Positions 42,472 through 60,741 of a stretch of 64,000 bases of DNA are shown here, piece by piece (the stretch's first letter is position 1; each line of letters begins with the position of its first letter). Position numbers and translations under genes: made by a program. The notes beneath the pieces are model-generated. The model searched no databases, was not told where the DNA came from, and saw nothing but the letters and a program-made list of their open reading frames with translations. This stretch comes from Patescibacteria group bacterium (GTDB lineage Bacteria; Patescibacteriota; Minisyncoccia; Phycocordibacterales; JAKFXT01). The stretch spans positions 14,889-78,888 of the forward strand of contig JAKFXT010000015.1 of NCBI GenBank assembly GCA_021731245.1, read 5' to 3'.

Positions 42472-42517
42472 TGAAAAATTATATCACAGCACGTGTTATA
42501 ATTTTTAATAATAAAAT

Positions 42518-43378: not shown

Positions 43379-43425
43379 GGCGTAAGGAATTGCCTTTTAA
43401 GGCAAAATCAGTATACTAGTCCCTT

Positions 43426-44112: not shown

Positions 44113-44173
44113 TTTCTGTTATTTCTTAATTTAAATGCCCTAAAATGGGCATGTTATAATTACATTTATAGAT

Positions 44174-45520
44174 ATGAGACGAACCATTTCAATTTCGTTG
44201 TTTTTTATTTTTTGCTTTTTCACTATAGGAGTCGCAGAAGCTCAGGTAAGTGGGCAGCTAAGTCCAGAAAGAAGAGCCGAGCTTGAAAGGCAACTTCAGG
44301 ATGTTGAAAAGCAAATAGCCGATCAACAAAAAGTACTTGAATCAAGACAAAAAGAATCAGTTTCTCTTGAAAGAGATGTGGCTATTTTGAATGCAAAAAT
44401 TAGTGAAGCCAAACTTTCTATAAAGGCGCGTAATTTAACTATTGAAAGACTGTCGGACGAAGTAAAGCAGAAAACAAAAGTTATAGGTGGACTTTCGGAT
44501 AAATTATTTAGAGAAAGGCAGTCTCTTTCTCAGATTTTGCGAAAAACCGATGAGATAGACGACTATTCTGTGGTAGAAATGGTTCTTGCCAACAAAACCA
44601 TTTCAGAATTTTTTTCGGATATTGATTCTTTTAAATCCGTAAATGATGCACTACAGACTTCTCTTGGTGTTGTAAAAGAAACTAAAGGAGAAACAGAAGA
44701 GGAGAGATCTACACTTGAAGAAAAAAAGAGGTCTCAAGCAGAACTTCTTCATTTACAAGAATTAGAAAAAAAGAAAATAGAGCAACAAGAAAAAGACAAG
44801 AAGACCATTTTAAGTCTTTCAAAAGGTCTTGAAAAAGAATATCAGAAAATCCTTGTTGAAAAACAATTAACTGCAGCGCAAATTAAATCGGAACTATTTC
44901 AATTGGTTGGTTCCGCCGCTATTCCATTTGAGACGGCTTACAAATATGCAAAGGAGGTGGAAGTAAAACTTGGAGTGCGACCAGCTTTTCTTTTAGCGGT
45001 TTTCCGTGAGGAATCTAATTTGGGACAAAATGTGGGAACGGGTAATTGGAGAGTAGATATGCATCCAACGAGAGATCAGCCAATTTTCGATGATTTAACA
45101 AGGGATTTGAATATTAACCCAGATACTGTACCTGTTTCGAAAAAGGTTTGGTATGGATACGGAGGTGCTATGGGTCCAGCTCAATTTATACCCTCTACTT
45201 GGGTCCTTTATGCCGGCTACAGCGAATCATCTAAGGGGTCTGGTGTTTGGACCTATAATTCATCTAAAGACCGAATAGGCGAATTGACGGGCAATAATCC
45301 ACCTAATCCGTGGAATCCAAGGGATGCCTTTTTTGCGTCTGGCCTTTTGCTTAGAGATAATGGCGCGGCCAAAGGGACGCGCGCTGCGGAACGCTTGGCG
45401 GCTCTTCGATATCTAGCCGGGTGGGCGAATGCTAGTAAGTCGGCTTATGCCTTTTATGGAAATGATGTGATGGAATTTGCCGATGAATATCAGGCTCAAA
45501 TCAATATTTTGAATAGGTAA
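44174..45520 (+). CDS. secreted coiled-coil protein with C-terminal lytic-transglycosylase-like domain
   Basis: Signal peptide, about 230 aa of coiled coil, then an MltB/SLT-like motif GAMGPAQFIPSTW. Confidence 0.5.
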   Translation: MRRTISISLFFIFCFFTIGVAEAQVSGQLSPERRAELERQLQDVEKQIADQQKVLESRQKESVSLERDVAILNAKISEAKLSIKARNLTIERLSDEVKQKTKVIGGLSDKLFRERQSLSQILRKTDEIDDYSVVEMVLANKTISEFFSDIDSFKSVNDALQTSLGVVKETKGETEEERSTLEEKKRSQAELLHLQELEKKKIEQQEKDKKTILSLSKGLEKEYQKILVEKQLTAAQIKSELFQLVGSAAIPFETAYKYAKEVEVKLGVRPAFLLAVFREESNLGQNVGTGNWRVDMHPTRDQPIFDDLTRDLNINPDTVPVSKKVWYGYGGAMGPAQFIPSTWVLYAGYSESSKGSGVWTYNSSKDRIGELTGNNPPNPWNPRDAFFASGLLLRDNGAAKGTRAAERLAALRYLAGWANASKSAYAFYGNDVMEFADEYQAQINILNR

Positions 45521-45566
45521 AATAGGTCTTGTTTTTTGTGATTACTTGGGGTAAAGTGTCAATTCA

Positions 45567-45806
45567 ATGAAAGCTGATATACATCCTAAATTTTTTACAG
45601 AGGCGAATGCAACCTGCGTTTGTGGAGCTGCCTTTGTTATTGGTTCTACAACCGAAAAAATAAAAGTAGAAATTTGCAGTAACTGCCACCCTTTTTATAC
45701 TGGAAACGATAAGATATTGGATACTGCTGGACGTGTTGAGAAGTTTAAGACTCGTGCCGCCGCTGCTAAGCCAACTAAGGCTCCAAAGAAAAAAAGTTCA
45801 AAATAA
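45567..45806 (+). CDS. rpmE: 50S ribosomal protein L31
   Basis: MKADIHPKF ... the C..C ... [10 protein letters not shown] zinc ribbon. Confidence 0.85.
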
Positions 45807-45817
45807 CTTAAGAAGCG

Positions 45818-45853
45818 TCCCGTGAACAGGAATCCTGTTCACGGGGCTATTTT
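45818..45853 (+). terminator. rho-independent terminator
   Basis: CCCGTGAACAGG-aatc-CTGTTCACGGG followed by GCTATTTT. Confidence 0.75.
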
Positions 45854-45868
45854 GCTACAATTAAATTA

Positions 45869-46843
45869 ATGAGCGAAGAACGCCTAAAAGAATTTAAAGA
45901 AAATTATAAGACCTCCTATTTGGCAGGTCGTTTTGAGCAATTGAAAAAACAAGAAGAAGAATTGTTGGAAATGAATAAGGACGAAAGTCTACAATCAATG
46001 GTGGAAGAAGAATTGAAGACATTGAGAGAAGAAATAAATACAGCTTGGAACCAGATGGAGAATATAGTTAAAGAAGAAGAAACTGAAGATAAGTTTCCTA
46101 ATGAAATAATTTTAGAAGTGCGTGCGGGAACAGGCGGTGAGGAAGCGGCTCTTTTTGCCTGGCAACTTGCAAGAATGTATGAGCGATATGCGCAAAAAGT
46201 TGGTTGGCAATTTAAAAATGTTTACGAATCAAAAAGTCCACTGGACGGATACAAAGAAGCAGCTTTTGAAGTAACAGGACAAGATGTTTATAAAAAACTT
46301 AGATTTGAAACAGGGGTTCATAGAGTTCAGAGAATCCCTGCGACAGAAAAGTCAGGACGCCTCCATACTTCTACGTCTAGTGTTGTTATTTTGCCAATAG
46401 TAAAAAAATCAAAAATAGTAATAAATCCAGTTGATTTGGAAATGGAATTTTCTCGCTCAGGTGGAGCAGGCGGTCAAAATGTTAACAAAGTAGAAACTGC
46501 TGTAAGACTTATTCATAAGCCAACAGGTATTGATGTGCGTTGTACATCTGAAAGAAGCCAGCAGAAAAATAGAGAAAAAGCTTTGGCGATTCTTTCGGCA
46601 AAATTACAAGTTCTTCAAGATGAGGAAGAGGCGAAAAAAGAATCAGGAAATAGAAAGGGTCAAATAGGAACAGGAAACAGAAATGAAAAAATAAGAACCT
46701 ACAATTTCCCGCAAGACAGAGTCACCGATCACAGAATAAAAGAAAGTTGGCACAATTTGCCAGCGATTTTAGAAGGCGGAATTGAAGACATCGTTGATTT
46801 ATTGCAAACCAAAGAGCACGGGGAAGTGGTTGATCAAGATTAA
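45869..46843 (+). CDS. prfA: peptide chain release factor 1
   Basis: GGQ motif ([12 protein letters not shown]) and RF1-type PAT tripeptide. Confidence 0.9.
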
Positions 46844-46852
46844 ATATAAAAT

Positions 46853-46878
46853 AAAAACCCCGCGTGAGCGGGGTTTTG
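46853..46878. terminator. bidirectional rho-independent terminator (serves prfA and the minus-strand GC-rich gene)
   Basis: AAAAA-CCCCGC-gtga-GCGGGG-TTTTG. Confidence 0.8.
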
Positions 46879-46895
46879 AAAACTGGGGCGGAGAG

Positions 46896-47417
46896 TTACT
46901 TCGCCGCCAGAACATCCTTGTCGATCTGCAGTAGCTTGGCGTGCTTTTCGACGCTTGTGTAGTTCATCGCGCCGATTGGCATTTGCCGTATTTGCCGAAG
47001 ATCACTGACCGTCAGCGCCCAGAAGTAGGGATAGAAGAACTGGCGGTTTTGATCTCCCACCTTATCCGCGAACTCCTTGAGCGCGTAGGTCTTGCCGTCG
47101 ATTCGAACACCTGGCCTTTCCTTCGAGATGTCGACCTCGAGGCTGACCAGAACATATGTAGCGAAAACGCTCCGCATGTTTTCTTTTTCTCGGACGAGGA
47201 AGCCTTCGTAGCTCCGGCAGTAGGTGCAGTCCCCACTGCTCAAGTAGATGAACAGCTGCTTTTTTTCTTCTTTCGCCGTCTTGATTGCGGACGTGAGGTC
47301 GAAGACCTTGCGTCCAGATTCAATCGCAGGCACGACCTTGATCGGCTTGAAATCTTCCGGCATACCTGCGAACGCCGGAAAAACAACTGCAACCAGCAGA
47401 AGCAAAAATGCTTTCAT
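46896..47417 (-). CDS. secreted thioredoxin-fold protein with CxxC (CTYC) motif; G+C-rich, foreign-composition gene
   Basis: Signal peptide MKAFLLLLVAVVFPAFAG and redox motif LSSGDCTYCRSYEG. The ORF is GC-rich with G/C-ending codons. It has its own consensus promoter, a 5' hairpin, an AAGGAG RBS 8 nt before the ATG, and a terminator. Confidence 0.6.
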   Translation of the reverse strand: MKAFLLLLVAVVFPAFAGMPEDFKPIKVVPAIESGRKVFDLTSAIKTAKEEKKQLFIYLSSGDCTYCRSYEGFLVREKENMRSVFATYVLVSLEVDISKERPGVRIDGKTYALKEFADKVGDQNRQFFYPYFWALTVSDLRQIRQMPIGAMNYTSVEKHAKLLQIDKDVLAAK

Positions 47418-47467
47418 GGAAAGATCTCCTTATATCGGCGTTGCGAAAGCAACGCTATCTATTGTCT

Positions 47468-47496
47468 ATTATACTCCAATAAAAGCCAAAAGTCAA
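47468..47496 (-). promoter_or_regulatory. consensus promoter on the minus strand: TTGACT - 17 nt - TATAAT
   Basis: Plus-strand agtcaa (47491-96) and attata (47468-73). The 5'-UTR hairpin GCGTTGC-uuuc-GCAACGC is at 47438-55. Confidence 0.6.
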
Positions 47497-47536
47497 TATG
47501 AAATGAGAAGAAGTAAAATAATGGCCTATTTTATAG

Positions 47537-49216
47537 TTATTTCTTCTCTAAGCAATAAATTTCATTAGCAAATGTTGGAACAAAAAATCTTTTTGTTTTT
47601 TCATTGTAAGCAATTTTATTAACAATTCTTTCTACTGATTGGAATATGCCCGTGTTTTTTCCAGTTTGAGTATTAATTTCATACAATCTAGCATCATTTG
47701 ATCCAATATATAATTTGCCTTCTATTACTGTAGGACTAGCAAAAATTCTTCCTTGCGTCTCGAATTTCCATATTAACTTAAAATTATCCAAATCAAGACA
47801 GTAAAGATGTTTGTTAAGAGACGCAAAGAAAATTTTGTTTTCGTAAATAAAAGGAGATGAATATATGACCATTCCTGTATCATAAGTGTGGGCAACATCG
47901 CCTGTTTTTATTTTTAAAATATAAAGTTTCCCATCATGTGAACCGAATGTTACAAGCCCTCTTTTTTCATCAAAGGCAAAGGAAGCTTTTACCTCGCCCC
48001 CTGTTTGGAATTTCCAAACTATTTCGCCTGTTTTTGCTTTAAAACAATAAACTCCACCATCGTTTGAACCGATTACAACTAACTTATCTTTTTTGTAATA
48101 TGCGGGGGAACCGTGTGTTAAACCGTCAAATTTATGTTCCCAGCACTTTTTTCCTGTTTCAGCATTAAGTGCCACAATACCACCTCTTTTTTTCCAAAAT
48201 CCAAATTCAAGTCCAACATAAACAAGTTCCAAATCTTCTGCTATAGCGGGGGAGGAGCCTATCCAATCAGCCTCCATAAATATCCATTTTTTCTTACCGG
48301 TTTCTTTGTCTAATGCATAGAAATTGCCATCATAGGCCCCAAAATAGACTGAACCTTTATACAGAGATGGGGAAGAAAAAATGCTTTTTCCCTGTGCTCC
48401 AAATCCCAGAATTTTAAAACGCCAAACTTCTTTGCCGTCTTCTTGATCAAGCGCCCAGAAAGTTCCATTATCACTACCAAAAAATATTTTATTTTCATCA
48501 ATTGCTGGGGCTGATTTTGGAACAACGTATAAATAAGTTGGATTGGGTATTTTTACTTGCCATTTGATTTCAAATGGGAAGTTTATTTTTTCTTTATCTT
48601 TTTCAATTAGGTTTGAAATATCCAAAGAGTCTTTGAAATCATCAAGTGTAAATAAAGAAAATATTTTTATCCCCTTGTCATTTAAATATTTATAGTAGGA
48701 AATATCACGAAAACGTAAAACGGCGCAAACAGCAACAACTTTTTTTCCAAGAGACTCTAGAATTTCTATTTGCCTTACGAATCCAAGCCCCCTGTTCATC
48801 AAATCGTCTACCAAGACAACGGGGTCGTTTGTTAGGTTTCCCTCAATCATATTTTGGAGATCAGTTTTCTCGCGAGACTTACGAATATAGAAACCAGATA
48901 TATCTTTTTCTTTTGATTTTAAAACTAGGGAAGTAATAATAGGAATTGAGGCTGTTTCTAATCCACCAATTTGAAATTTAGGTAAATCTTTTAGTTTTTC
49001 TAAAAATAAATCAGAAATTTGGTTTAAAATTTCAGCATTAAAGAGAATTTTTCTAAAATCAAACACCCAGTCAACCTTTCTGTTGTTTTCATCGATGATT
49101 TTAGCAACATCTTTACTTATAAAGACTTGATTTTCTATTATTTTCTTTAAGTTTGGTAAAGTTTTATCCACAAAATTGAAAGCGCAATAGGTTCCCCTAG
49201 AGCTATACTTTAACAA
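47537..49216 (-). CDS. fusion protein: type I phosphoribosyltransferase domain + PQQ-like beta-propeller
   Basis: N-terminal PRTase PRPP-binding motif VVLVDDLMNRGLGF. The C-terminus has at least 6 PQQ/BamB-like repeats (G.FYALD..TGK..W.F). Confidence 0.6.
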   Translation of the reverse strand: MLKYSSRGTYCAFNFVDKTLPNLKKIIENQVFISKDVAKIIDENNRKVDWVFDFRKILFNAEILNQISDLFLEKLKDLPKFQIGGLETASIPIITSLVLKSKEKDISGFYIRKSREKTDLQNMIEGNLTNDPVVLVDDLMNRGLGFVRQIEILESLGKKVVAVCAVLRFRDISYYKYLNDKGIKIFSLFTLDDFKDSLDISNLIEKDKEKINFPFEIKWQVKIPNPTYLYVVPKSAPAIDENKIFFGSDNGTFWALDQEDGKEVWRFKILGFGAQGKSIFSSPSLYKGSVYFGAYDGNFYALDKETGKKKWIFMEADWIGSSPAIAEDLELVYVGLEFGFWKKRGGIVALNAETGKKCWEHKFDGLTHGSPAYYKKDKLVVIGSNDGGVYCFKAKTGEIVWKFQTGGEVKASFAFDEKRGLVTFGSHDGKLYILKIKTGDVAHTYDTGMVIYSSPFIYENKIFFASLNKHLYCLDLDNFKLIWKFETQGRIFASPTVIEGKLYIGSNDARLYEINTQTGKNTGIFQSVERIVNKIAYNEKTKRFFVPTFANEIYCLEKK

Positions 49217-49239
49217 AAAGGGTAATTTAAATCACTTAT

Positions 49240-49662
49240 ATGAATGAGAGAATAAAATACATATTTATAGTATCTGCCACCTTTTTGTTAACGCTCGTTT
49301 TGATTTATGGGACACCCCTTAGATACACAGATTTATTAGAGCCTAAAATTAAAGATGTTGATCCATCTGTTTTTTATCAAAAATATTCTCAAAATCCAGA
49401 TAAATATGTGTTTATAGATGTGAGACCCTTGGAGGCTTATAAAAATATACACGCGAAAGGATCGGTAAGTAAGCCACTCCATACTTTATATGATGAGCGT
49501 CATACATTGCCCAAAGATGATAAAGAAATTATACTAATATGTAGTGGAGGTCGTGCGTCAGGAGTAGGTTTTTTCTATCTTCAGCATTACGGCTTTACTA
49601 ACATAAGTCGTGTAGAAGGAGGAATAGAGAATTGGATAGAGAAAGGATTACCTACTGAATAA
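49240..49662 (+). CDS. rhodanese-domain protein (membrane-anchored)
   Basis: N-terminal TM and the rhodanese active-site loop ILICSGGRAS (Cys-x5-R). Confidence 0.7.
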   Translation: MNERIKYIFIVSATFLLTLVLIYGTPLRYTDLLEPKIKDVDPSVFYQKYSQNPDKYVFIDVRPLEAYKNIHAKGSVSKPLHTLYDERHTLPKDDKEIILICSGGRASGVGFFYLQHYGFTNISRVEGGIENWIEKGLPTE

Positions 49663-49671
49663 TATTTACAT

Positions 49672-49926
49672 ATGAAGAAAATATACAAAATTACGTTTTA
49701 TATTTTAACAACGATTGTGGTATTACCTGTCTTTTCATTATTTATTGATAATCAAAAAGACGATTCTGTTTTTGTAAACACTGTCTCTGCCGATGTCCCG
49801 GCTGTTGTTGTTCCACCTCAACCAGCCCCCTACGATTATTCGGGTGGTGGATCATCAGGTGATGGTTCTTGTGATAGTGGTGGAGCTGATGGTGGTGGTG
49901 GAAGCGGTTGTGATGGTGCTTGGTAA
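49672..49926 (+). CDS. small secreted/anchored Cys- and Gly-rich peptide, paralog 1
   Basis: N-terminal hydrophobic segment, ADVP motif, then the G/S/D-rich tail GGGSSGDGSCDSGGADGGGGSGCDGAW. Confidence 0.5.
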   Translation: MKKIYKITFYILTTIVVLPVFSLFIDNQKDDSVFVNTVSADVPAVVVPPQPAPYDYSGGGSSGDGSCDSGGADGGGGSGCDGAW

Positions 49927-49957
49927 GTATTTTTTATATTAAAAATTTATAGTAGAT

Positions 49958-51058
49958 ATGGATACTGAAAAACAAGACGATTTAGGAAAGTTGATAAAAA
50001 TTGGACTTCCCATTTTAATTTTAGGAGCTTTAGTTTTTGTTTTTTTTATAAATAGAGATTATTTTTTTAAAAAAGATGGAGTAGTAATGAAAGGTGCATC
50101 AAGTAGACAAGATTTGTCAAAGAAGAATAGTGATTTTGCTAAAGCAGAGTCACTCCTTAGAAATAATCCTAGCGAAGCTTTAATTTCATATAAAGAGGCT
50201 TTAGGTAATGCGTCTTCTCAAGAAGATTCAGATAGTATTTCTTTTAGAATAGCACTCGCAACATATAGAAGTGGTCAATTAAGTGAAGGTATTAATCTGT
50301 TTAAGAAACTTGTTTCTTCAAAGGATGTCTCTAATGTAACAAAAGCATATTCTATACAGTTTTTTGTTCAAGAATATTTTGCTACTAATAGTCAATCTTT
50401 GTTTGATTTAATATTCTCTGATGATCCATACAAGAGTTTTCTAAAAGATAATAATAAAGAAGGTGCAATAAGAGAGTTGGTTGAGTATGGTAAATCACTT
50501 CTTCCATTACCGTTACTAACCCTTAGATCAGCAGATTATAAAGCAAAAGATCTTATTATCTTCAAAAATGAATCAGATATAACCAAAGAAACACTTCTTT
50601 CAGGGATAAGTAATGATTTGAATATGGCGGAGGCGGGTATTGAAGCTCTAAGAGGAACACCAAATATAGATCAGTTGCCTGTTATATACAATAGAAAAAT
50701 GGTCCTTTTTACAAATTTAAAGCGAGCAGGATACATAATGGGGGATCCGGCAGATTCTTATGAAAAAGGAGTTAGTTTCTCTAATCTTTACAATGACAAG
50801 GAAACTTTGATGTTCTTACATTTAAATTACGCTATTTATTTGTTAATAGAAAATTCAGAAGCTAATGAAGAAAAGATACGTTCTATCTTAAAAAATATAG
50901 TTGAAGAAAAAGATAGAGACCTTAATGTTTTTCAATATTTAAAAAATAAAGCAAGTTCTAATAAGAATACAGATGAGTTTGTTAAGTTTATAATGGTTTT
51001 GGTTGACGTAGACGAATCATTCAAAGATTTACTCACGACATTAGGTTGGAAGTTCTAA
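49958..51058 (+). CDS. hypothetical membrane-anchored protein (helical repeat)
   Basis: One N-terminal TM helix, then an alpha-helical TPR-like domain. It is flanked by the two small peptide genes. Confidence 0.45.
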   Translation: MDTEKQDDLGKLIKIGLPILILGALVFVFFINRDYFFKKDGVVMKGASSRQDLSKKNSDFAKAESLLRNNPSEALISYKEALGNASSQEDSDSISFRIALATYRSGQLSEGINLFKKLVSSKDVSNVTKAYSIQFFVQEYFATNSQSLFDLIFSDDPYKSFLKDNNKEGAIRELVEYGKSLLPLPLLTLRSADYKAKDLIIFKNESDITKETLLSGISNDLNMAEAGIEALRGTPNIDQLPVIYNRKMVLFTNLKRAGYIMGDPADSYEKGVSFSNLYNDKETLMFLHLNYAIYLLIENSEANEEKIRSILKNIVEEKDRDLNVFQYLKNKASSNKNTDEFVKFIMVLVDVDESFKDLLTTLGWKF

Positions 51059-51063
51059 TCAAA

Positions 51064-51297
51064 ATGAAGAAAACTATTAAAAAAGCCATTTATATTATTG
51101 GTTTGGTTTTTGTTTTCCCAATGATTTCAATTTTTCTTAACAAAGAAGATAAAGTTGTTGACGTTGTAAAAATTGTCTTAGCGGATGTGCCAGTTAACAA
51201 TAATGTTCAAGATTATTATGGGGATTCCTCTAGTCTAGGGGGTGGTTGCGATGGGGCTGGGAGTGATGGTGGAAGTGGCTGCGACGGTTCTTGGTGA
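51064..51297 (+). CDS. small secreted/anchored Cys- and Gly-rich peptide, paralog 2
   Basis: MKKTIKKAIYIIGLVFVFPMISIF ... ADVP ... GGGCDGAGSDGGSGCDGSW. Same architecture as 49672..49926. The start was taken at the internal ATG, 4-nt coupled to the upstream gene. Confidence 0.5.
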   Translation: MKKTIKKAIYIIGLVFVFPMISIFLNKEDKVVDVVKIVLADVPVNNNVQDYYGDSSSLGGGCDGAGSDGGSGCDGSW

Positions 51298-51370
51298 TTA
51301 TTTTAGAAAAAAGAAAAGGCGCGATGGACTTTTTCAAGTCGTTGCGCCTTTTTGTTTGCCGTCCAAACAC

Positions 51371-52000
51371 TTACTTCATTTCACTTGTTTCACCACAGGC
51401 AATGAGTTGATGTATTTCTTCCGGACCGCCGCTACGATCGACGAATTTCATCATTACGTAACGTTTGATCTTGGAGTCAGTCGGAAACCAAGCGATTTGC
51501 ACCATGCTACTGGAGTAACCACTTGAGAGTCGGTAGGTCGTTACAACCTCGATTTTTATGGTGTCGAAAATACCAGCCGGAACTCTCACACCTTTTTCAA
51601 AGACGGAACTCGCCACGCTACTTTCAGCGTAGACCGTCACTCCCTGTTGCCGCGGATGGGGGTAGCTAAACTTTCCTCCCCCTGTAATTCCAGCCTTTAG
51701 CGGGTAATTCGGCATTACAAAAGCAGGTGAATACTTGATTCCATCACGCTCTAAAAGCTGATGGTCGTTGTTGTATATCCTAGTTGATAATCCTCGCCCA
51801 TCTTTCACTAAGAGCTTAAATCCGCCATCAGGAAAAATTTCGACAAACTCCTGTTGGACGATCCCAGCGACACGAGAATTACTCTCATAGTCGCATCGAT
51901 AACCCTTGTTGTAATCCGGTTTTGGAAATTCTTGCGACAGGGAGTTTCCAACAAGGAATGTAAGGAAAAGGCTCAGAATCAAAGCCACCGGCGTTTTCAT
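51371..52000 (-). CDS. secreted hypothetical protein; G+C-rich, foreign-composition gene
   Basis: Signal peptide MKTPVALILSLFLTFLVGNSLSQE. The start was set at the ATG that has a TAAGGAG RBS 9 nt upstream; the ORF track's longer start lacks an RBS. It has its own promoter, a 5' hairpin and an imperfect terminator at about 51300-51350. Confidence 0.55.
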   Translation of the reverse strand: MKTPVALILSLFLTFLVGNSLSQEFPKPDYNKGYRCDYESNSRVAGIVQQEFVEIFPDGGFKLLVKDGRGLSTRIYNNDHQLLERDGIKYSPAFVMPNYPLKAGITGGGKFSYPHPRQQGVTVYAESSVASSVFEKGVRVPAGIFDTIKIEVVTTYRLSSGYSSSMVQIAWFPTDSKIKRYVMMKFVDRSGGPEEIHQLIACGETSEMK

Positions 52001-52062
52001 CGAAGAGCGCTCCTTAATCTTTGAGTTTGGGGGCAAAATTGCCCATAAATCAATCCAATTCG

Positions 52063-52092
52063 ATTATAATAACAAAAAATCTATTCTGTCAA
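52063..52092 (-). promoter_or_regulatory. consensus promoter on the minus strand: TTGACA - 17/18 nt - (T)TATAAT
   Basis: Plus-strand tgtcaa (52087-92) and attataa (52063-69). The 5'-UTR hairpin GGGCA-aaau-UGCCC is at 52031-44. Confidence 0.6.
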
Positions 52093-52144
52093 ATCTTGTT
52101 AAAAATATATTTTTTGATTTGTGTTGAGATGATATGCTTCTTTT

Positions 52145-52846
52145 ATGAGTAGGAAAGTTTTACATATTTTCACTTTTTTTGTTTTGGCGGTAGTTGTTTT
52201 AAGTATTTCAAGAGAAAACGTTTATTTTAGTATAGGGAGCTATTATTTTGGAGGTGGGGGATATGATTTAAAAAAGGCAGAAAAATATTTTAGGAAAGTT
52301 GTTTCAATAGAAGAAGATTATCCAAGAGTTCATTATCAGTTGGCAAGAATCAATTTTTTGAATGCTAGGTTTGCTGAAGCGAAATCGGAAATAAATAAAG
52401 AAATAAGTTTATATCCAGATTTCCATAAATCTTATTATATGGAGGGTTTGATTGCAGGCTATGCAGGGGATTTTGATACTGCAATTAATGGTTTTAAAGA
52501 ATTTCAAAAGTACGATTCTTTTAATTGGGCAGCGTACAATGACTTGTCTTGGATATATTTTCAAAAAGGAGATTTTGAATTAGCTAAAGATGTGGCAATT
52601 GACGGTTTAGAACATGCTCCAAATAATCCTTGGCTTTATAATTCTTTGGGTATTGCGCTACTTAATTTAAAAGAAATGTCTGAAGCGAAGATTGCTTTTG
52701 AAAAAGCGCTCCAAAATATTGATAAAACAACACCAGAGCAGTGGGGCAAGTCCTATCCAGGGAACGACCCTAAAATATATAAAGATGGTTATTTGGCCAC
52801 CAAAGAATCAATAGTTTATAATCTGGAGCTTTTAAAGCAATACTAG
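52145..52846 (+). CDS. TPR-repeat protein with N-terminal membrane anchor
   Basis: TM helix followed by about 5 TPR-like repeats (W..Y.L..AL...G.Y..A). Confidence 0.6.
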   Translation: MSRKVLHIFTFFVLAVVVLSISRENVYFSIGSYYFGGGGYDLKKAEKYFRKVVSIEEDYPRVHYQLARINFLNARFAEAKSEINKEISLYPDFHKSYYMEGLIAGYAGDFDTAINGFKEFQKYDSFNWAAYNDLSWIYFQKGDFELAKDVAIDGLEHAPNNPWLYNSLGIALLNLKEMSEAKIAFEKALQNIDKTTPEQWGKSYPGNDPKIYKDGYLATKESIVYNLELLKQY

Positions 52847-52908
52847 GAAATATTTAGTGTGGATAAGGAATTAGAAAAGCTTTAGGCTATAGTGCTAACA
52901 TAGTATTA

Positions 52909-53805
52909 ATGGAGAAAAATTTAACCTCTTTTGCTAAGAATAATTTATACGCTTTAATATTTTTATTTGTTTTGGGCATATCTCTTTTGATTGGAACTTT
53001 AATTAAAAATGGTGGAGCCCCCATTAAGTCTTCAGAGTTTTCTTTTTATAGCTTATCTCCAAATGGTGAGCTCGGTGGGCGTAGCGTACCAGCTTCATGC
53101 CCATCTGATTTACACGATGACCCTACTTATGGAACAGCGTGCCAGTCGGCCCCGAATTCTTGTGGAGCAAGAGGTAATGGAACTTATCAATGTGGAGGAG
53201 TTTGTAATGCGACAGCTCCTGTTGCGGCAAATAATTATGGACAAGCTTGCTCATCAACAAATGCATGTGGCATAAGTGGGTCAGGAACATACAGCTGTTC
53301 TGGCACTTGCAGTGCCAACCCAGCGTTGCCTGCAGGATACGGACAATATTGCCAATCGCAACCAAATAATTGCGGTGTTTTTGGTCAGGGATACAGAGGA
53401 TGTAATGGAAGTTGTCCCGCCATTAGACCAGCTGATGATACAGATTGTAGTGATGTAGAAATTGAAGTTGGAACGACAACGACTATTACTATCCCACCTA
53501 ATTGTGAAATCGGAGGACCTGATTGTGAGGTTGTGACTACAATAATTCCACGCGACTCAGAGTTTGTTTCCCCTGGATCATCCTGTTCGATTTATTGGGA
53601 TGCAAGTCCTGCAACAAGATGTACTATAGTGGGACCAAGTGTAAATAGGCAAAATGAGCCACCATCAGGGTTGTTTGTAACACCAAGAATAGGAGTAGAT
53701 ACTCCAGGATCAGCCACTTACACCATAACTTGTTATAACGGAAACACTCTTGCTGCAGAGAGAAGATTCTCTTGTCGCTTGAATCCTAATTTCCAAGAAG
53801 TATAA
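52909..53805 (+). CDS. secreted/anchored cysteine-rich repeat protein
   Basis: N-terminal TM, then at least three repeats of C(Q/S)S.PN.CG..G.G(T)Y.C.G.C.A, followed by a C-terminal Cys-containing beta-rich region. Confidence 0.5.
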   Translation: MEKNLTSFAKNNLYALIFLFVLGISLLIGTLIKNGGAPIKSSEFSFYSLSPNGELGGRSVPASCPSDLHDDPTYGTACQSAPNSCGARGNGTYQCGGVCNATAPVAANNYGQACSSTNACGISGSGTYSCSGTCSANPALPAGYGQYCQSQPNNCGVFGQGYRGCNGSCPAIRPADDTDCSDVEIEVGTTTTITIPPNCEIGGPDCEVVTTIIPRDSEFVSPGSSCSIYWDASPATRCTIVGPSVNRQNEPPSGLFVTPRIGVDTPGSATYTITCYNGNTLAAERRFSCRLNPNFQEV

Positions 53806-53890
53806 GATTCTTATAAGGAAAAGTGTCTAAAACGAAGAGCTTTTTAAGTATTGCTAAACCCAAATTCTTTTGTTAGAGTAAGTCGCTATT

Positions 53891-54619
53891 ATGGCAGTAG
53901 AAACAGGAGAAATAGAAAACCCAACCATAGAACGACTCTTTAAAGCGGGTGTTCAATACGCCTACTCTAAATCACGAAGACATCCATCTGTGTCGCCTTT
54001 TATATTTGGTTCTAAAAATCGCGTTGAAATCTTCAATCTAGAAACTGTCTTCGGGGCTCTTACACTCTCTAAAGAATTCGTTAAAAGTCTTGGAAAAGAA
54101 AGAAAGGTTGTTTTAATAGTTGGAGGAAAACAAGAAGCTAGAGAAATAGTAGAGAGAGCCGCGGATTCTATTGGTATGCCAAGAGTTGCGGGAAGATTTA
54201 TTGGAGGCAGTCTTACTAATTTTCCTCAAATCAGAAAGCGTGTAGAAAAATTGGAAAAATTCTTGGAAGAAAAAGAGTCCGGTGAACTCAATCGCTATAC
54301 AAAAAAAGAACGATTACTTATTGATAGAGAAATCGCTCGTCTAACTCATAATTTCGGTGGAATTAGAACTATGAAAGCGCTTCCCGCAGCTCTCATTGTT
54401 ATTGATTCAAAGCGCGAGAATATCGCTGTTAAAGAAGCCAAAGATTTGGGAATTCCAGTTATAGCTCTACTTAACTCAGATTGTAATTTAAAAGAAGTGG
54501 CTTACCCTGTGCCAGGCAATGACTCACTTAAGAGCAGTATCTCCATTTTCCTTGAGGAAATGACTGAGGCTTATAAAGAAGGACAGAAAAGTATAACAAC
54601 TAGCCCAGAACTTTCTTAA
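53891..54619 (+). CDS. rpsB: 30S ribosomal protein S2
   Basis: LFKAGVQYAYSKSRRHP ... VLIVGGKQEA ... IPVIALLNSDCN are conserved. Confidence 0.9.
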   Translation: MAVETGEIENPTIERLFKAGVQYAYSKSRRHPSVSPFIFGSKNRVEIFNLETVFGALTLSKEFVKSLGKERKVVLIVGGKQEAREIVERAADSIGMPRVAGRFIGGSLTNFPQIRKRVEKLEKFLEEKESGELNRYTKKERLLIDREIARLTHNFGGIRTMKALPAALIVIDSKRENIAVKEAKDLGIPVIALLNSDCNLKEVAYPVPGNDSLKSSISIFLEEMTEAYKEGQKSITTSPELS

Positions 54620-54662
54620 AGTTTTTTAGTTTTTAAGTGGTTCCTTTTAATATTTTTTTATT

Positions 54663-55241
54663 ATGATTACAACTGAACAAATAAAGCAATTGCGTGATCA
54701 GACAGGTATTTCTGTAATGCAGTGTAAAAAAGCACTTGAAGAGGCGGGCGGGGATATGGAAAAGGCTTTAATAATTTTAAGAAAAAAAAGTAGTGACATT
54801 GCTGCTAAAAAGGGAGATAGAGAACTTGGTTCTGGTGCTATTGGTTCATATTTGCACAATAGCGGCACAATTGGTGCCATGGTGGTTCTCCAAAGTGAAA
54901 CAGATTTCGTATCAAAAAATGAAGAGTTTAGAAAGTTGGCATATGATATCGCCATGCATGTTGCAGCGAGTAATCCAACTTATCTTTCTATGCAAGATAT
55001 TCCAGAAAACGACATGAAAAAAGCTGGGGAAGTTTTTGAAAAAGAGGCGGAAGGAAAACCAGCCGAAATGCGCGAAAAGATAGTAAAAGGGAAATTAGAA
55101 GCATACTTTAAAGATAAGGTTTTGCTTGAACAGCCGTTTATAAAGAATCCTGATGTGACCATTAACACTCTGCTTTCTGAAGCGGTGCAAAAGTTCGGTG
55201 AACGCGTGGCCATCTCTACCTTCACAAGATTAAGCGCTTAG
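54663..55241 (+). CDS. tsf: elongation factor Ts (short form)
   Basis: N-terminal UBA-like LRDQTGISVMQCKKALEEAGGDMEKA and the dimerisation core. Confidence 0.85.
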   Translation: MITTEQIKQLRDQTGISVMQCKKALEEAGGDMEKALIILRKKSSDIAAKKGDRELGSGAIGSYLHNSGTIGAMVVLQSETDFVSKNEEFRKLAYDIAMHVAASNPTYLSMQDIPENDMKKAGEVFEKEAEGKPAEMREKIVKGKLEAYFKDKVLLEQPFIKNPDVTINTLLSEAVQKFGERVAISTFTRLSA

Positions 55242-55433
55242 TCACAACAAATCAATTCTCGCTTTTTTGACGAGAATTAATTTGAGGTGCGGAAAGGGGG
55301 TCGGGGAAAACTTTAGGTTTCCCCGTGGAGGAAAGCAGCGAGTAAAGCGAGCGTTGAGAACCGAGGGATTCTCAAAAATAAAATATCTAATTGGATTTCT
55401 ACGAGATATTTTATTTTTGCTATAATTAGTAAT

Positions 55434-55868
55434 ATGGGACTTATTTATATATTTTTTTCGTCGCTAGCTGGGATACTAATTTTGATATCTCTTAAAGCTT
55501 GGGAGCTACATCGTGGAGCTAAGCCTTTTTCTGTTTTGCGTTATAGGCTAGATATTATTGTCAGGAGAAGTGTAGAAAATATTAAATTACACGCTCGTTA
55601 TATAAGTTGGACAACCGCTCGTATTACACTTGCTTTTATTGTGGCAAAGATTGTTGATTTCCTGACTTTAATTTGGCAAAAACTTACTAATTCAGAATTC
55701 TTCAAATTAATTAGAGGTAAAGTTATTCCTAAAGCGTCCGGCCCCGTTTCTGCATTCCTTAAAGATGTAGCTGAATTCAAAAGCGCTGGAGTTGTGGGAA
55801 GTGAGGAAATGAAAAAAGAGTTTGAAAAGGAGGTTGAAAAATCTGTTGAGGTTGATTTAAAAAAGTAG
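55434..55868 (+). CDS. hypothetical membrane protein
   Basis: N-terminal TM plus an amphipathic/charged C-terminus. No recognisable domain. Confidence 0.4.
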   Translation: MGLIYIFFSSLAGILILISLKAWELHRGAKPFSVLRYRLDIIVRRSVENIKLHARYISWTTARITLAFIVAKIVDFLTLIWQKLTNSEFFKLIRGKVIPKASGPVSAFLKDVAEFKSAGVVGSEEMKKEFEKEVEKSVEVDLKK

Positions 55869-55911
55869 ATATTTTGCCATTTTGTAAGTATTTGTTAGAG
55901 TAGGCACTATT

Positions 55912-55987
55912 GCCGGGATAGCTCAGTTGGTAGAGCAACGGTTTTGTAAACCGTAGGTCGGAGGTTCGAACCCTCTTCCCGGCTCCA
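55912..55987 (+). tRNA. tRNA-Thr (anticodon UGU), CCA encoded
   Basis: Manually folded cloverleaf: acceptor GCCGGGA/TCCCGGC, D-arm GCTC-AGTTGGTA-GAGC, anticodon stem ACGGT/ACCGT with loop TTTGTAA, T-arm GGAGG-TTCGAAC-CCTCT, discriminator T plus CCA. 76 nt. Confidence 0.85.
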
Positions 55988-55997
55988 ATTTTTTAAA

Positions 55998-56026
55998 AAC
56001 ACCCGAGTTTTCTGGGTGTTTTTTTG
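55998..56026 (+). terminator. rho-independent terminator after the tRNA
   Basis: AACACCC-gagttttct-GGGTGTT followed by TTTTTT. Confidence 0.7.
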
Positions 56027-56056
56027 ATATAATTATGGAAATTAATTTTAATAAAA

Positions 56057-57232
56057 ATGGAGAGCCATCCCAGTCAATCAAATTCTTCTAGTAATTTTCC
56101 AAAAGGCTTTCTCTGGGGTTCTGCCACTGCTTCTTATCAAGTGGAAGGTGGAATAGAAAATAACGATTGGGCCAAGGCGGGAAGAGAGGGAAAGGTTCCT
56201 CCTGCGGGCATATCCTCCGATCATTACAATAGATATGAGAAGGATTTCGATATTGCTCAATCTCTCTCTCAAAACACTCACAGATTATCAATTGAGTGGG
56301 CGAGAATTGAACCCCATGAAGGGCAATTTGACGAAAAAGAAATAGAGCATTACAGAAGAGTCATTCAGTCCTTGAAACGGCGTGGACTTGAGCCTTTTGT
56401 AACACTTTGGCATTTTACCTTGCCGATTTGGTTTGCCGATAAGGGTGGCTTTGAAAATGAAGAATCTCCAAAGATTTTTGCTAGATATTGTAAATATGTC
56501 GTTAGTAAATTAGGGGATGAGGCAGAATTTTGGATGACTATAAACGAACCTCTGATTTGGGCGTCCGGTAGTTATTTTAGAGGTAAGTGGCCACCTTTTA
56601 AGAAAAATATTTTCAAATTTATTAGAGTACAGTCGTCTTTAGTTGAGTCTCACACTCTAGCTTTTAAAAGTATGAAAGAAATAAATTCAAATTTGAAAAT
56701 TGGAATAGCAAAAAATAATATGTATTTTGGAGCGGATAATAAAGTATGGAACATAATTGCTAAAAACTTTATGAATTGGTTTTGGAATGAAAGGTTTTTG
56801 GATAAAATATCGGGTCACCAAGATTTTATAGGATTGAATCATTATTTTTATGTGAAATTTGGCGATAAAGATAAATTGCCAAAAACAGATATGAATTGGG
56901 ATATATTTCCAGAGGCAATTTACAAATGTTTAGTTCAATTAAAAAAATATAATAAACCAATTTATATTACAGAAAATGGCATTGCCGATGAAAAGGATGT
57001 AATGAGAGGGGATTTTATAAAAGATTATTTAAAATTTGTTAAAAAGGCGATTGATGAAGGGGTGGATGTGAAAGGGTATTTTCACTGGTCACTACTGGAT
57101 AATTTTGAATGGTCATTTGGTTTTGATAAAAAATTTGGTTTAGTAGAAATAGTCCCGAAAACACTTGAAAGAAAAATAAGATCGTCTGCTTATATTTATA
57201 AAAAGATAGCCGAAAATAATTCAATTGTATGA
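56057..57232 (+). CDS. GH1-family beta-glucosidase (short form)
   Basis: FLWGSATASYQVEGG, the acid/base TINEP and the nucleophile ITENG. Confidence 0.85.
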   Translation: MESHPSQSNSSSNFPKGFLWGSATASYQVEGGIENNDWAKAGREGKVPPAGISSDHYNRYEKDFDIAQSLSQNTHRLSIEWARIEPHEGQFDEKEIEHYRRVIQSLKRRGLEPFVTLWHFTLPIWFADKGGFENEESPKIFARYCKYVVSKLGDEAEFWMTINEPLIWASGSYFRGKWPPFKKNIFKFIRVQSSLVESHTLAFKSMKEINSNLKIGIAKNNMYFGADNKVWNIIAKNFMNWFWNERFLDKISGHQDFIGLNHYFYVKFGDKDKLPKTDMNWDIFPEAIYKCLVQLKKYNKPIYITENGIADEKDVMRGDFIKDYLKFVKKAIDEGVDVKGYFHWSLLDNFEWSFGFDKKFGLVEIVPKTLERKIRSSAYIYKKIAENNSIV

Positions 57233-58134
57233 ATCCCGATTTAGCTTTTACTATTTCAATAGCATTTGTTCTAGTTGGGCAGATTCTTAATGCTGCGATA
57301 GTCCTAATAGATAAATACATAGTTACCAAAACCACTATTAGTAGTCCTGGGGCATACGCCTTCTTTGTGAGTCTTATGTCTGGAGTTGTTCTCATATTGG
57401 TTCCATTTGGAGTTATAGGACTACCTGATTATGAAACCATATGGCTTTCTTTGGATATTGGTCTTATTTTTGTCGCATCCATAGTTCTTCTTTATAGGGC
57501 ACTTAAACATGCTAACGCAACGGATGTTGTCGCATGGCTTACAGCAATTTCTACTATAACCACATTCATTTTTGGTGTTATTTTTCTGGACGAACAGTTA
57601 CCAAAGAATTTTCCATATGCCATGGCACTTTTCATACTAGGTATTCTTTTTGTGGGTCATTTTCGTTTTTACGCTCTTTCCTTTATTCAAGTGGTAGTGT
57701 CCGGAATACTTTTCGGTTTGTCCGCTGTTCTTTTGAAAGTTCTTTTTTCTCATGCCAGTTTTATTGATGGATTTTTTTGGTCACGTATGGGAAATTTGGT
57801 CGCTGCTTTAGCCCTACTAATTCTTCCATCTATTAGGAGTCATGTGTTTACCACATCTAAAAACACAACTCATAAAACTGGTTTTCTGGTTATAGCGAAT
57901 AGAATTTTGGGTGGAGTGGCATTCCTTTGTATATTATATGCAATTCAACTTGGTTCGGTTTCAGTGGTCAATGCGCTTTCATCTTTGCAATTCGTTTTTA
58001 TTTTCCTACTGATACTTTTCTTTGCCAAGAAACTGCCTGATTTGTACCATCACGAGTTCCGTCCGGGACACATTCTTCATAAAGTTGTAGCTATGCTATT
58101 TATAGTTCTTGGTTTTGCAGTACTATTCCTATGA
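57229..58134 (+). CDS. DMT-superfamily (EamA-like) transporter
   Basis: About 10 TM helices in two homologous halves, 301 aa. Confidence 0.5.
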   Translation: MNPDLAFTISIAFVLVGQILNAAIVLIDKYIVTKTTISSPGAYAFFVSLMSGVVLILVPFGVIGLPDYETIWLSLDIGLIFVASIVLLYRALKHANATDVVAWLTAISTITTFIFGVIFLDEQLPKNFPYAMALFILGILFVGHFRFYALSFIQVVVSGILFGLSAVLLKVLFSHASFIDGFFWSRMGNLVAALALLILPSIRSHVFTTSKNTTHKTGFLVIANRILGGVAFLCILYAIQLGSVSVVNALSSLQFVFIFLLILFFAKKLPDLYHHEFRPGHILHKVVAMLFIVLGFAVLFL

Positions 58135-59129
58135 TTTTTTTAAAGAAAATATTTAAGTTTTTTTTGGGAGTCATTTTTTTGATAGTTTTTATCGTGGCTA
58201 TTTTTTCTTTTCGTAAAACGCCAGATAATATATCTTATGGAGTTTCTTTCAGTAAGTATCGTGCCGATGAACTGGGTCTACCTTATAGAGAAACATTTAT
58301 ATCAATTCTCGATGATTTGAAAGTAAGGGATTTTAGATTATCAGCTCACTGGCCAATGATTGAACCTGAAAAGGATGTTTTTAATTTTATCGATTTAGAC
58401 TTTCAAATAGAAGAAGCAAAAAAAAGAAAAGCTGAAGTTATTTTGGCTATAGGAAGAAGACTTCCGAGTTGGCCAGAGTGCCACATTCCAGGATGGGCCA
58501 GAGATTTATCTTGGGAAGATCAGAAAAAAGAAATTCTTTCTTATTTAGAGAAAACAGTAGAAAGATATAAGGGATATGAAAATATAAAATACTGGCAAGT
58601 AGAAAACGAGCCTTATCTTTCCATTTTTGCTAAAGAACATTGTGGGGAATTAGACAAGGAGTTTTTAAAAGAAGAAATAGCTTTAGTTAAAAAATTAGAC
58701 CCAGAAAGAAAAGTTCTAGTCACAGATAGTGGTAATTTGGGGCTTTGGTACGGAGCTTGGAAATCAGGAGATGTCTTTGGTACCAGTGTTTATATATATC
58801 TTTGGAATCCAGAAATTGGACAAGTTAAAACTATTTACAGGCCATTCGTTTACAAAGCAAAAACAAATATTTCTGAGTTTTTCTTTGGTAAAAAAGACTC
58901 ACTTTTGATAGAGCTTGCACTAGAGCCTTGGTTAATTGAGCCTATAACGACCGCAAGTATTGAGACTCAAATAAATAGAATGGATATAGCAAAATTTGAT
59001 GAAATAATAAATTTTTCAAAAAAGACAGGCTTTTCTGAACAATACCTTTGGGGGGTTGAGTGGTGGTATTGGATGAAAAATAAAGGTCATAGTGAGTATT
59101 TTGATAAAGCGAAAGAAATTTTTGAATAA
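58131..59129 (+). CDS. membrane-anchored glycoside hydrolase (clan GH-A, GH5-like)
   Basis: N-terminal TM. The WQVENEP acid/base-type motif and a TIM-barrel-like layout. Confidence 0.45.
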   Translation: MIFLKKIFKFFLGVIFLIVFIVAIFSFRKTPDNISYGVSFSKYRADELGLPYRETFISILDDLKVRDFRLSAHWPMIEPEKDVFNFIDLDFQIEEAKKRKAEVILAIGRRLPSWPECHIPGWARDLSWEDQKKEILSYLEKTVERYKGYENIKYWQVENEPYLSIFAKEHCGELDKEFLKEEIALVKKLDPERKVLVTDSGNLGLWYGAWKSGDVFGTSVYIYLWNPEIGQVKTIYRPFVYKAKTNISEFFFGKKDSLLIELALEPWLIEPITTASIETQINRMDIAKFDEIINFSKKTGFSEQYLWGVEWWYWMKNKGHSEYFDKAKEIFE

Positions 59130-59199
59130 TAGGATATTTTAAAAGTTCTAGATTTATCTTCTTTTTCTTGCTAAATTGCCCATACTTAATATTGATTAA

Positions 59200-60738: not shown

Positions 60739-60741
60739 TAA

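Follow-up and report, generated by a model that had tools for sequence, protein, structure and literature searches.

Proteins of the DUF3108-like and DUF3108 families (PF21347 and PF11306) are small, at about 200–215 amino acids (aa), and combine an N-terminal signal peptide with an all-beta barrel. Their structural-genomics representatives, BDI_3050 of Parabacteroides distasonis (4FVS) and BF2203 of Bacteroides fragilis (3FZX), are assigned to the 'YmcC-like fold'. One published account refers to DUF3108 solely as linked genes that code for beta-barrel proteins of YmcC fold, and the function of the DUF3108 proteins is not known (PMC4364669). Here we describe a gene for a protein of this type in a member of the Patescibacteria, a bacterium of the candidate phyla radiation (CPR). 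The gene lies at 51371–52000 on the minus strand of a stretch of 64,000 nucleotides (nt) from contig JAKFXT010000015.1 (assembly GCA_021731245.1, positions 14,889 to 78,888), which we call the window and to which all unlabelled coordinates refer. A sequence-only reading of this stretch had singled the gene out as a stand-alone, GC-rich expression cassette for a secreted protein, inserted between two other genes and devoid of any recognizable domain. Apart from small slips the observation was sound: the unit does stand alone, its product carries a secretion signal and its composition is atypical, while "inserted" and "domain-less" have to be given up. In our reading it is probably an ordinary, well-insulated monocistronic gene for an exported YmcC-like barrel, inherited vertically, whose excess of G+C is now stationary.

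Direct Pfam and NCBIfam scans of the studied protein were empty, with no match to PF21347 even at E ≤ 1, and to this extent the protein is indeed without a domain. The picture changed with the family profile and the fold. HMMER, run exhaustively against 1.84 billion representatives, returned 24 proteins, nearly all of them 204–234 aa long and aligned from end to end. PF21347 (DUF3108_like) is matched at E ≤ 1 by 14 of the 20 aligned family members, with a best value of 4.5e-8; three members scanned separately, P0019 from within the alignment and P0037 and P0038 from outside it, exceed the gathering score of 27 bits. Direct profile matches to 4fvs and 3fzx were weak (E about 0.02). An AlphaFold model built from the 20-sequence alignment is an all-beta barrel with a predicted local distance difference test score (pLDDT) of 92.6 and a predicted TM-score (pTM) of 0.84; it was used in place of the single-sequence model, with a pLDDT of 45. 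Its only significant Foldseek matches in the PDB are 4FVS and 3FZX (E about 1e-6). The studied protein is thus predicted to be an exported beta-barrel of about 200 aa with the DUF3108-like/YmcC fold, and read in this ordinary way it adds to these barrels an unannotated, structurally confident subfamily that is placed in CPR bacteria.

The differences from the described proteins are equally clear. Sequence identity to 4FVS and 3FZX is 10–12%, and the subfamily has motifs of its own (VGEWCEY, PDGGY, FPLKVG, YPH and VTVPAGTFDTLRV) as well as a putative Cys-Cys staple. Both Cys36 and Cys202 occur in 15 sequences, five have Trp and Phe in place of the two, and in one the residue is unpaired, a pattern which suggests that a disulfide, or else an aromatic contact, joins the first strand to the last. 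With E. coli YmcC (2IN5), carriers of the LolA/LolB type and the lipid-binding beta-structures of lipovitellin and MTP, the likeness is one of fold only, and there is no sequence similarity. To our knowledge, the Lol machinery is not expected in CPR bacteria.

Export is predicted from the N-terminus. By inspection, residues 1 to about 22 (52000–51935; MKTPVALILSLFLTFLVGNSLS|QE) form a signal peptide made up of MK, a 14-residue hydrophobic core and SLS|QE, with predicted cleavage after SLS22. The 209 aa, which the sequence-only reading took for the mature protein, are therefore those of the precursor, and the mature form has about 187 aa. An equivalent N-terminus is found in all 20 aligned members, most of them ending A-x-A|QE, and the protein is in all likelihood exported by a Sec-type route. 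Neither a lipobox nor a sorting motif is present. CPR bacteria are presumed to lack an outer membrane. Both points set the protein apart from the described proteins of the family, and, having no lipobox, it seems better described as a free or wall-associated exported protein than as an outer-membrane-associated lipoprotein. As for function, Gly, Pro and Ala make up the invariant columns of the family, which show no conserved polar set of catalytic appearance, the neighbours in fold space are lipid-carrying barrels, and in one clade a GDSL lipase gene lies next door. Our best guess, drawn from these three features, is an abundant exported protein that, without being an enzyme, binds or carries a hydrophobic or envelope ligand on the surface of a symbiotic CPR cell. 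CPR bacteria rely on partner cells for lipids and envelope precursors, and an abundant exported barrel for hydrophobic ligands, encoded near genes for thiol-redox proteins and a lipase, can reasonably be put forward as a candidate component of the symbiont–host interface.

The gene is organized as a compact unit on the minus strand, which runs from 52092 to 51307 through promoter, 5' untranslated region (UTR), Shine-Dalgarno sequence, open reading frame (ORF) and terminator. Its elements are given below together with their state in three metagenomic loci, namely L003, a contig from a Hainich metagenome-assembled genome (MAG) that carries the orthologue, L011, which carries a relative with 41% identity (P0003), and L070, which carries a very divergent member of 205 aa.

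52087 to 52092, minus strand: -35 hexamer TTGACA, invariant in the window, L003 and L011.
52063 to 52068, minus strand: -10 hexamer TATAAT, invariant in the window, L003 and L011.
52010 to 52016, minus strand: Shine-Dalgarno sequence TAAGGAG, 9 nt ahead of the ATG at 52000, kept in L003.
51371 to 52000, minus strand: coding sequence of 630 nt including the TAA stop at 51371, for the 209-aa precursor.
51307 to 51353, no single strand: bidirectional intrinsic terminator with an A-tract, a GC-rich imperfect hairpin (core 51348–51318) and a T-tract.
52001 to 52144, no single strand: divergent intergenic control region common to the studied gene and the tetratricopeptide repeat (TPR) gene, which starts at 52145.

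The promoter, TTGACA-18-TATAAT at 52092–52063, is the sole 12/12 match of a consensus scan between 46 and 56 kb. Only two such matches exist in the whole window on both strands, compared with 0.12 expected from block shuffles; the other one, at 12487, stands ahead of the GC-rich ORF 12565–13005, and a third GC-rich ORF has an 11/12 promoter. Besides the promoter, the control region holds an AT-rich upstream tract and the 5' UTR of about 56 nt. Over its 144 nt the window and L003 are 88% identical, against 48–70% for the other intergenic regions compared; the one exception, the spacer between the TPR and p298 genes, also reaches 88%, over just 34 aligned nt. The equivalents of the Shine-Dalgarno sequence are GAGGAGG in L011 and AAGGAGG in L070. 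The ORF list offers a longer start, the TTG at 52036; the ATG at 52000 is favoured by the position of the Shine-Dalgarno sequence and by the N-termini of the family, which begin MK.

The terminator was missed by a simple terminator scan owing to its internal loop, and was found by folding. Its free energy of folding (dG) is -23.3 kcal/mol (z -4.5), none of 200 shuffles was equally stable, and it is followed by UUUUCUUUUUU. With an A-tract upstream and a T-tract downstream of the hairpin it is read as bidirectional, and it serves also the convergent gene for a Cys/Gly peptide, which ends at 51297. L003 (dG -24.3), L011 and L070 have a hairpin with a T-run as well. All in all, the sequence-only reading described these elements well: the promoter at 52063–52092, here with all 12 positions matched and a spacer of 18 nt, TAAGGAG 9 nt before the ATG, the GC-rich ORF of 630 nt (G+C content, GC, 0.459) with a secreted product, and an imperfect bidirectional hairpin with a T-run at about 51300–51350 were all borne out. 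The unit is stand-alone and monocistronic, with its own promoter, Shine-Dalgarno sequence and terminator, between one divergent and one convergent gene. From these signals we infer that the promoter is active and that the gene may be highly expressed.

Two further details of that reading fared less well. The string GGGCA-AUUU-UGCCC does occur in the 5' UTR at about 52044–52031, with a loop of AUUU and not AAAU, as had been stated. The UTR fold shows no excess stability over shuffles (dG -10.9, z -0.2), and the stem is broken by two substitutions in the L003 orthologue (dG -4.4, z +1.6); a functional hairpin was rejected on these two grounds, and Rfam gave zero matches in the UTRs or the loci studied. 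The other detail, noted as a curiosity, is the SapI site GAAGAGC at 52002. It does adjoin the ATG, but it is one of six such sites in the window and is gone from the L003 orthologue through a 3-nt deletion; its position is probably due to chance.

A unit this tidy, with a composition unlike its surroundings, can easily be taken for an insert or a construct, and it is worth pointing out how firmly the comparison with other assemblies speaks for an old resident. Two short Logan contigs, assembled independently from SRR10388252 and SRR10388253, encode the 209-aa protein without a single change; they are 100% identical to window positions 50282–52204 and 50949–52478 and span both junctions. Among 5.8 billion proteins, a word-indexed search found one relative, the sole close homolog, a 144-aa 'hypothetical protein' from a Patescibacteria MAG of Hainich groundwater; the deeper family described above needed the exhaustive HMMER search. 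The contig of this homolog, L003, is an independent assembly and is collinear with window positions 42380–61911 at about 76% nt identity. In window orientation its genes run prfA, thioredoxin-like, PQQ-propeller, rhodanese, Cys/Gly peptide, p366, the studied gene, TPR, p298, rpsB and tsf. The orthologue is thus placed between the TPR and p366 genes, with the same promoter, Shine-Dalgarno sequence and terminator, and the novelty of the window with respect to L003 lies not in the studied ORF but in the second Cys/Gly peptide gene at 51046–51297.

The orthologue (L003 10001–10628) carries a +1-nt frameshift near L003 10416, which cuts its product to 144 aa. This truncated product recurs on 13 contigs from several samples. 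The frame downstream of the extra base is still conserved, with a ratio of nonsynonymous to synonymous divergence (dN/dS) of 0.07, and the frameshift looks like a very recent, real inactivation in that population. A programmed frameshift was considered as well; by eye there is no slippery motif around the extra base, and no dedicated search was run. With the extra base repaired, the window and L003 copies differ by a dS of 1.34 and a dN of 0.14 (dN/dS 0.11). The neighbour genes have dS values of 1.1–2.4 and dN/dS values of 0.05–0.16, except for the small CG1 peptide (0.46). Since these values match, the studied gene has diverged together with its flanks, under purifying selection. Its neighbours are housekeeping or envelope genes, and the nearest tRNA gene is 4 kb away. 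Searches with tblastn gave zero matches in phage collections, plasmid collections and viral contigs; neither mobility genes nor flanking repeats were seen near the gene, where no dedicated repeat search was run. The gene is not a recent insert but a natural resident of a low-GC Patescibacteria genome. There is a lesson of method here: a compositional outlier with textbook signals resembled an insert or construct, and it was synteny and synonymous sites that showed an old resident.

The same site is occupied in far more distant lineages. In L011, P0003 sits between a divergent p298-TPR pair and a convergent gene for 387 aa, behind TTGACA-18-TATAAT and GAGGAGG and ahead of a terminator, and its G+C content at third codon positions (GC3) is 0.48, against 0.30–0.33 in the flanks. 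The member in L070 has the same position, with p366 convergent on one side and the TPR gene divergent on the other; it has TTGACT-17-TATATT, AAGGAGG, a terminator and a GC3 of 0.47 against 0.30–0.35. A third relative, P0008 (34% identity, L012/L013), shares the downstream part of the synteny, with a convergent p366 followed by the small peptide, rhodanese and PQQ genes, and has a GC3 of 0.59 against 0.36–0.46. P0009 (L014) and P0012 (L019) lie 0.19–0.25 above their flanks in GC3. The sequence-only reading had pictured an insertion between the second Cys/Gly gene and the TPR gene, and the same neighbourhood in related low-GC genomes (L003, L011 and L070) tells against it. A profile search with the TPR protein gave 79 metagenome loci, of host GC 0.34–0.59, and 49 of these have at least 1 kb upstream of the TPR gene; seen across them, the studied gene is a sporadic accessory gene of a variable block, which, where present, has the same site and architecture.

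Outside the CPR, P0006, P0007 and P0010 are found on contigs of 60–63% GC with unrelated neighbours (DUF3047, redoxin, GST and YeeE-like), and P0004 and P0005 on contigs of about 50% GC. The closest named relatives of the neighbouring DUF3047 gene of the high-GC carriers, at about 55–59% identity, are in MAGs of Nitrospirota and Desulfobacterota type. In composition four of these five non-CPR homologs are typical of their contigs and none stands above its flanks; P0004 has a lower GC than the single gene beside it. In a neighbour-joining tree (200 bootstraps) the window protein, L003 and P0003 group with the higher-GC sequences with 100% support, and the L012/L014/L019 group falls outside that clade. 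This grouping points to exchange between CPR and higher-GC bacteria, in either direction, and it is most likely to such exchange, with the bacteria that are home to the nearest non-CPR homologs, that the GC-richness of the studied gene can be traced.

Let us turn to this composition. The profile of the window bears out that the gene is atypical: its GC of 0.459 and GC3 of 0.467 compare with means of 0.367 (standard deviation 0.043) and 0.284 (0.075) over 67 window ORFs, so that in GC3 it stands about 2.4 standard deviations above them. Only three window ORFs are GC3 outliers, namely 51371–52000, 46896–47417 (0.67) and 12565–13005, the last scored through the longer antisense ORF 12562–13071 (GC3 0.60). 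Within the studied unit the rise does not extend beyond the ORF and its terminator, and the sequence of promoter and UTR is rich in A+T. The share of C in Y-ending two-fold codons is 0.48 against 0.23 in the background, the share of G in R-ending codons 0.40 against 0.29, and G+C at four-fold sites 0.46 against 0.28. The L003 orthologue has a GC of 0.49–0.52 and a GC3 of 0.54–0.64, against a background GC3 of 0.31.

How long such an excess has been in place can be asked of the synonymous sites themselves. At conserved residues encoded by the same codon family in two genomes, the strong (G or C) and weak (A or T) states of the third positions were compared, and their correlation is given as phi. 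For the window and L003 the results were as follows.

Background genes: phi 0.15; GC3 at the compared sites 0.23 in the window and 0.25 in L003.
Studied gene: phi 0.24; GC3 at the compared sites 0.42 and 0.52.
Thioredoxin-like gene at 46896–47417: phi 0.05; GC3 at the compared sites 0.63 and 0.60.

Between the studied gene and its relatives in L011, L012 and L014, phi is 0.06, 0.09 and -0.03, that is, the third positions are fully randomised. GC3 in this comparison is still 0.41–0.63 in the gene and its homologs, while the flanking genes have 0.18–0.29 in the window and L011, 0.38–0.47 in L012 and 0.39–0.42 in L014; an excess of about +0.15 to +0.25 thus persists, and a GC excess is present in every low-GC lineage examined. 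If the copies share one ancestor at the site, an excess that outlasts the randomisation of third positions is not the leftover signature of a donor, and under that condition it is a stationary, gene-specific state. What causes it to persist remains the unexplained part of the locus.

Put together, the evidence would fit the following course of events. A consensus promoter of sigma-70 type, a strong Shine-Dalgarno sequence and an intrinsic terminator would drive expression of a Sec-exported protein with about 187 mature residues, which would take on the YmcC-like fold of the DUF3108-like superfamily as a soluble beta-barrel, stapled from first to last strand by a Cys36–Cys202 disulfide. The gene would belong to an accessory block, variable in content, that stretches from prfA to the TPR gene and is rich in exported, Cys-containing and thiol-redox proteins, and would have been inherited vertically at its site from before the L003 lineage split off, if not for longer, with family members at the same site in far more distant lineages. 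Its GC-richness, mainly at third positions, would have come from past exchange with higher-GC bacteria and would by now be a property of the gene itself and not a fresh foreign signature.

A number of points weigh against this account. The studied protein falls below every Pfam threshold, so that its membership rests on transitive homology and fold, and the TM-scores to 4FVS and 3FZX are just about 0.5; the ligand-binding function is a guess. The promoter was scored against the sigma-70 consensus, the use of which in CPR bacteria is an assumption. A family member is present in just two of the 49 TPR loci, one being the L003 genome itself and the other L070, the CPR sequences are not monophyletic in the neighbour-joining tree, and repeated gain at one site could also have produced the distribution, in place of long residence and loss. 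As the L003 frameshift implies, at least one lineage can do without the gene. Finally, on the window–L003 pair alone, slow decay from an ancestral GC3 of about 0.65–0.8 is arithmetically possible.

Among other explanations, the one that survives best, doubtful as we find it, treats the studied gene as a 'high-output' gene, in which GC is kept by selection connected with very high expression or with a stable mRNA; codons ending in G or C, resistance to AU-directed RNases and the shielding of mRNA ends by flanking structures would be the contributors. It draws on the fact that both 12/12 promoters and one of 11/12 stand ahead of just those three ORFs that are GC3 outliers, all of which have strong Shine-Dalgarno sequences and strong terminators, on the conservation of the promoter over deep divergence, on the stationary excess, and on several GC3-outlier genes in relatives that encode small exported proteins. 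The genes for ribosomal protein S2 and EF-Ts, normally highly expressed, are nevertheless ordinary in GC3 (0.26–0.33), and the shift is compositional, affecting G as well as C in all codon classes and four-fold sites too, and is not a tRNA-matched choice of codons. Both facts argue against simple translational selection, and as sole cause of the GC excess we rejected it on the evidence of S2 and EF-Ts. The 5' hairpin, moreover, is unsupported.

Decay is the next idea to consider, and we think it unlikely. Here a single old transfer into the ancestor of the CPR subclade would still be ameliorating, with no force holding GC3 up. The window copy does have a lower GC3 than the L003 copy at shared synonymous sites (0.42 against 0.52), and the phi of 0.24 is some memory of a common state. 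An excess of the same size is kept, however, in L011, L012, L014 and L070, with third positions fully randomised, and the thioredoxin-like gene, with its phi of 0.05 and a GC3 of 0.60–0.63 over a background of 0.23–0.25, would under pure decay need an ancestral GC3 above 1, which is impossible. In the well-known model of Lawrence and Ochman, too, acquired genes that are ameliorating appear as GC and GC3 outliers of an otherwise homogeneous genome, with a patchy distribution and with outgroup homologs in genomes of different GC, all of which the studied gene shares. It departs from the model in that a higher GC persists in an AT-rich genome with no decay after synonymous randomisation, in its synteny over deep divergence and in its conserved, AT-rich consensus promoter of host type.

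Recent horizontal insertion, by which the ORF, alone or together with its signals, would be a foreign cassette in a low-GC genome and would owe its high GC to a donor signature not yet ameliorated, seems to us quite improbable. Atypical GC and GC3, a shift that runs through all codon classes and is not confined to NNC codons, a sporadic distribution, closest non-CPR homologs on higher-GC contigs and the gain or loss of other GC-rich cassettes between close relatives (the DUF5680 gene described below) are all what one would expect of it. These observations have to be set against an orthologue at the same site in L003 with a dS of 1.34, like its neighbours, and with purifying selection, against family members at that site in L011 and L070, third positions that are fully randomised between lineages while the excess stays, and the lack of mobility genes and of viral, plasmid or phage matches reported above. 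With integron gene cassettes, which are likewise small accessory units of a single ORF with an imperfect 3' hairpin, the locus has little else in common: each unit has its own promoter, conserved in the studied gene, the terminators are ordinary U-tract terminators and the position is fixed by synteny, and on this anatomy an integron cassette was rejected; no integrase or cassette array is found among the neighbours of the locus, the window at large not having been searched for an integrase or attC. An assembly chimera or engineered construct, for which one could cite the textbook layout, a SapI site placed to leave an ATG overhang and BglII sites in the 5' UTRs of other units, deserves next to no credence in view of two further assemblies with identical junctions, diverged natural orthologues with the same layout in groundwater and other metagenomes, and a SapI site that is one of six in the window and absent from the orthologue.

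Our preferred reading, that of a vertically inherited gene with a stationary excess, leaves the question of why three window genes are alike in this respect, and the puzzle that deserves further work might well be their GC3 excess, coupled as it is to the best consensus promoters, and not the cassette itself. One could tentatively propose, as a possibility we find rather slim, that small genes, monocistronic and insulated and in most cases encoding exported proteins, form a class in this clade, with a GC3 held about 0.15–0.4 above the equilibrium of the genome even once synonymous sites have turned over completely, and with the strongest consensus promoters. Members of the class would be the studied gene, the CxxC thioredoxin-like gene at 46896–47417, the 146-aa gene at 12565–13005 and similar outliers in relatives. 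Were such a class real, it would be a compositional 'caste' of genes and not un-ameliorated foreign DNA, and it would imply gene-specific selection on mRNA composition (stability or translation kinetics) or continual GC-biased exchange with higher-GC partners or hosts. And if the excess is actively maintained, it would offer a clean natural test of non-mutational forces on codon composition in very AT-rich, reduced genomes.

The two other GC-rich single-gene units of the window have the same layout and lie at 12487–13060 on the plus strand and 46854–47496 on the minus strand. The ORF of the first, 12565–13005, encodes 146 aa without a Pfam match, behind the 12/12 promoter at 12487 and ahead of a terminator with a dG of -24.9. 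That of the second, 46896–47417, encodes a signal-peptide protein of 173 aa with a CTYC (CxxC) motif and weak Thioredoxin_7 matches; its promoter is the one with 11/12, and the gene is syntenic in L003. The 3' hairpins of the three units are U-tract terminators with no sequence kinship among them. Both of the other units have a BglII site (AGATCT) in the 5' UTR, at about 12522–12531 and 47424–47436, probably by coincidence.

Units of this sort come and go between close relatives. L003 has an extra one at 19540–20260, between the aldolase and PfkB genes, which consists of a TTGACA promoter, a DUF5680 ORF (GC3 0.58) and a hairpin with a T-run, and is followed at about 20205–20250 by a perfect inverted repeat of about 17 bp; the window has just a spacer of about 46 nt at this place (42472–42517). 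At least three further small signal-peptide ORFs with a GC3 0.16–0.27 above the locus median were seen in related Patescibacteria loci, at L063 499–939, L074 1238–1711 and L076 414–959, none with a Pfam match.

In the second CPR subgroup of the family, the homologs of L012 (296–385), L014 (33–124) and L019 (225–315) have in common a 5' leader, conserved over about 90 nt, with the motif TTCACAT..CTT.AG.GT..CGAGCATGGCCAAAA...TGGAG. It has no Rfam match and, with only three sequences, no covariation; it could be a regulatory leader. The gene directly upstream of the homolog here (L013 2–538, L012 1–237) is the GDSL-like lipase/acylhydrolase mentioned above, which is GC-rich as well (0.51, host about 0.41) and has its own terminator.

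The block from prfA to the TPR gene, 5.3 kb within 45869–52145, is variable among relatives. In the window it contains the thioredoxin-like gene, the PQQ-propeller, the rhodanese, the Cys/Gly peptides, p366 and the studied gene, a neighbourhood dominated by exported or Cys-rich and by thiol-related proteins; in L051 (2511–3612) it is absent, and prfA is followed directly by TPR, p298, rpsB and tsf. The Cys/Gly peptides, encoded on the plus strand at 49672–49926 and 51046–51297, are paralogues of about 84 aa with an N-terminal hydrophobic segment, an ADVP motif and a tail rich in Gly, Ser, Asp and Cys that ends in GCDG(A/S)W; neither has a Pfam match. L003 and L012 have kept a small-peptide gene where the first copy stands, and the second copy, being absent from L003, is a duplication of the window lineage.

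Elsewhere in the window, a plus-strand promoter with 11/12 matches, TTGACT-16-TATAAT, stands at 19194–19221, just past a gene that ends at 19185; the spacer to the next ORF, about 265 nt downstream at 19486, has no Rfam match. The TPR gene itself has no Shine-Dalgarno sequence (52101–52147, plus strand). Instead, TGATATGCT, which resembles an extended -10 element, ends 6 nt before its ATG, and by eye the gene may be translated from a leaderless mRNA. Its neighbour p298 (52909–53805, plus strand) encodes 298 aa rich in Cys, Gly and Ser, with repeated units of the type C-x-G-x-G-x-Y-x-C-x-G-x-C and an unusually high G+C content at second codon positions (0.57), and the TPR-p298 pair is kept across many Patescibacteria loci.

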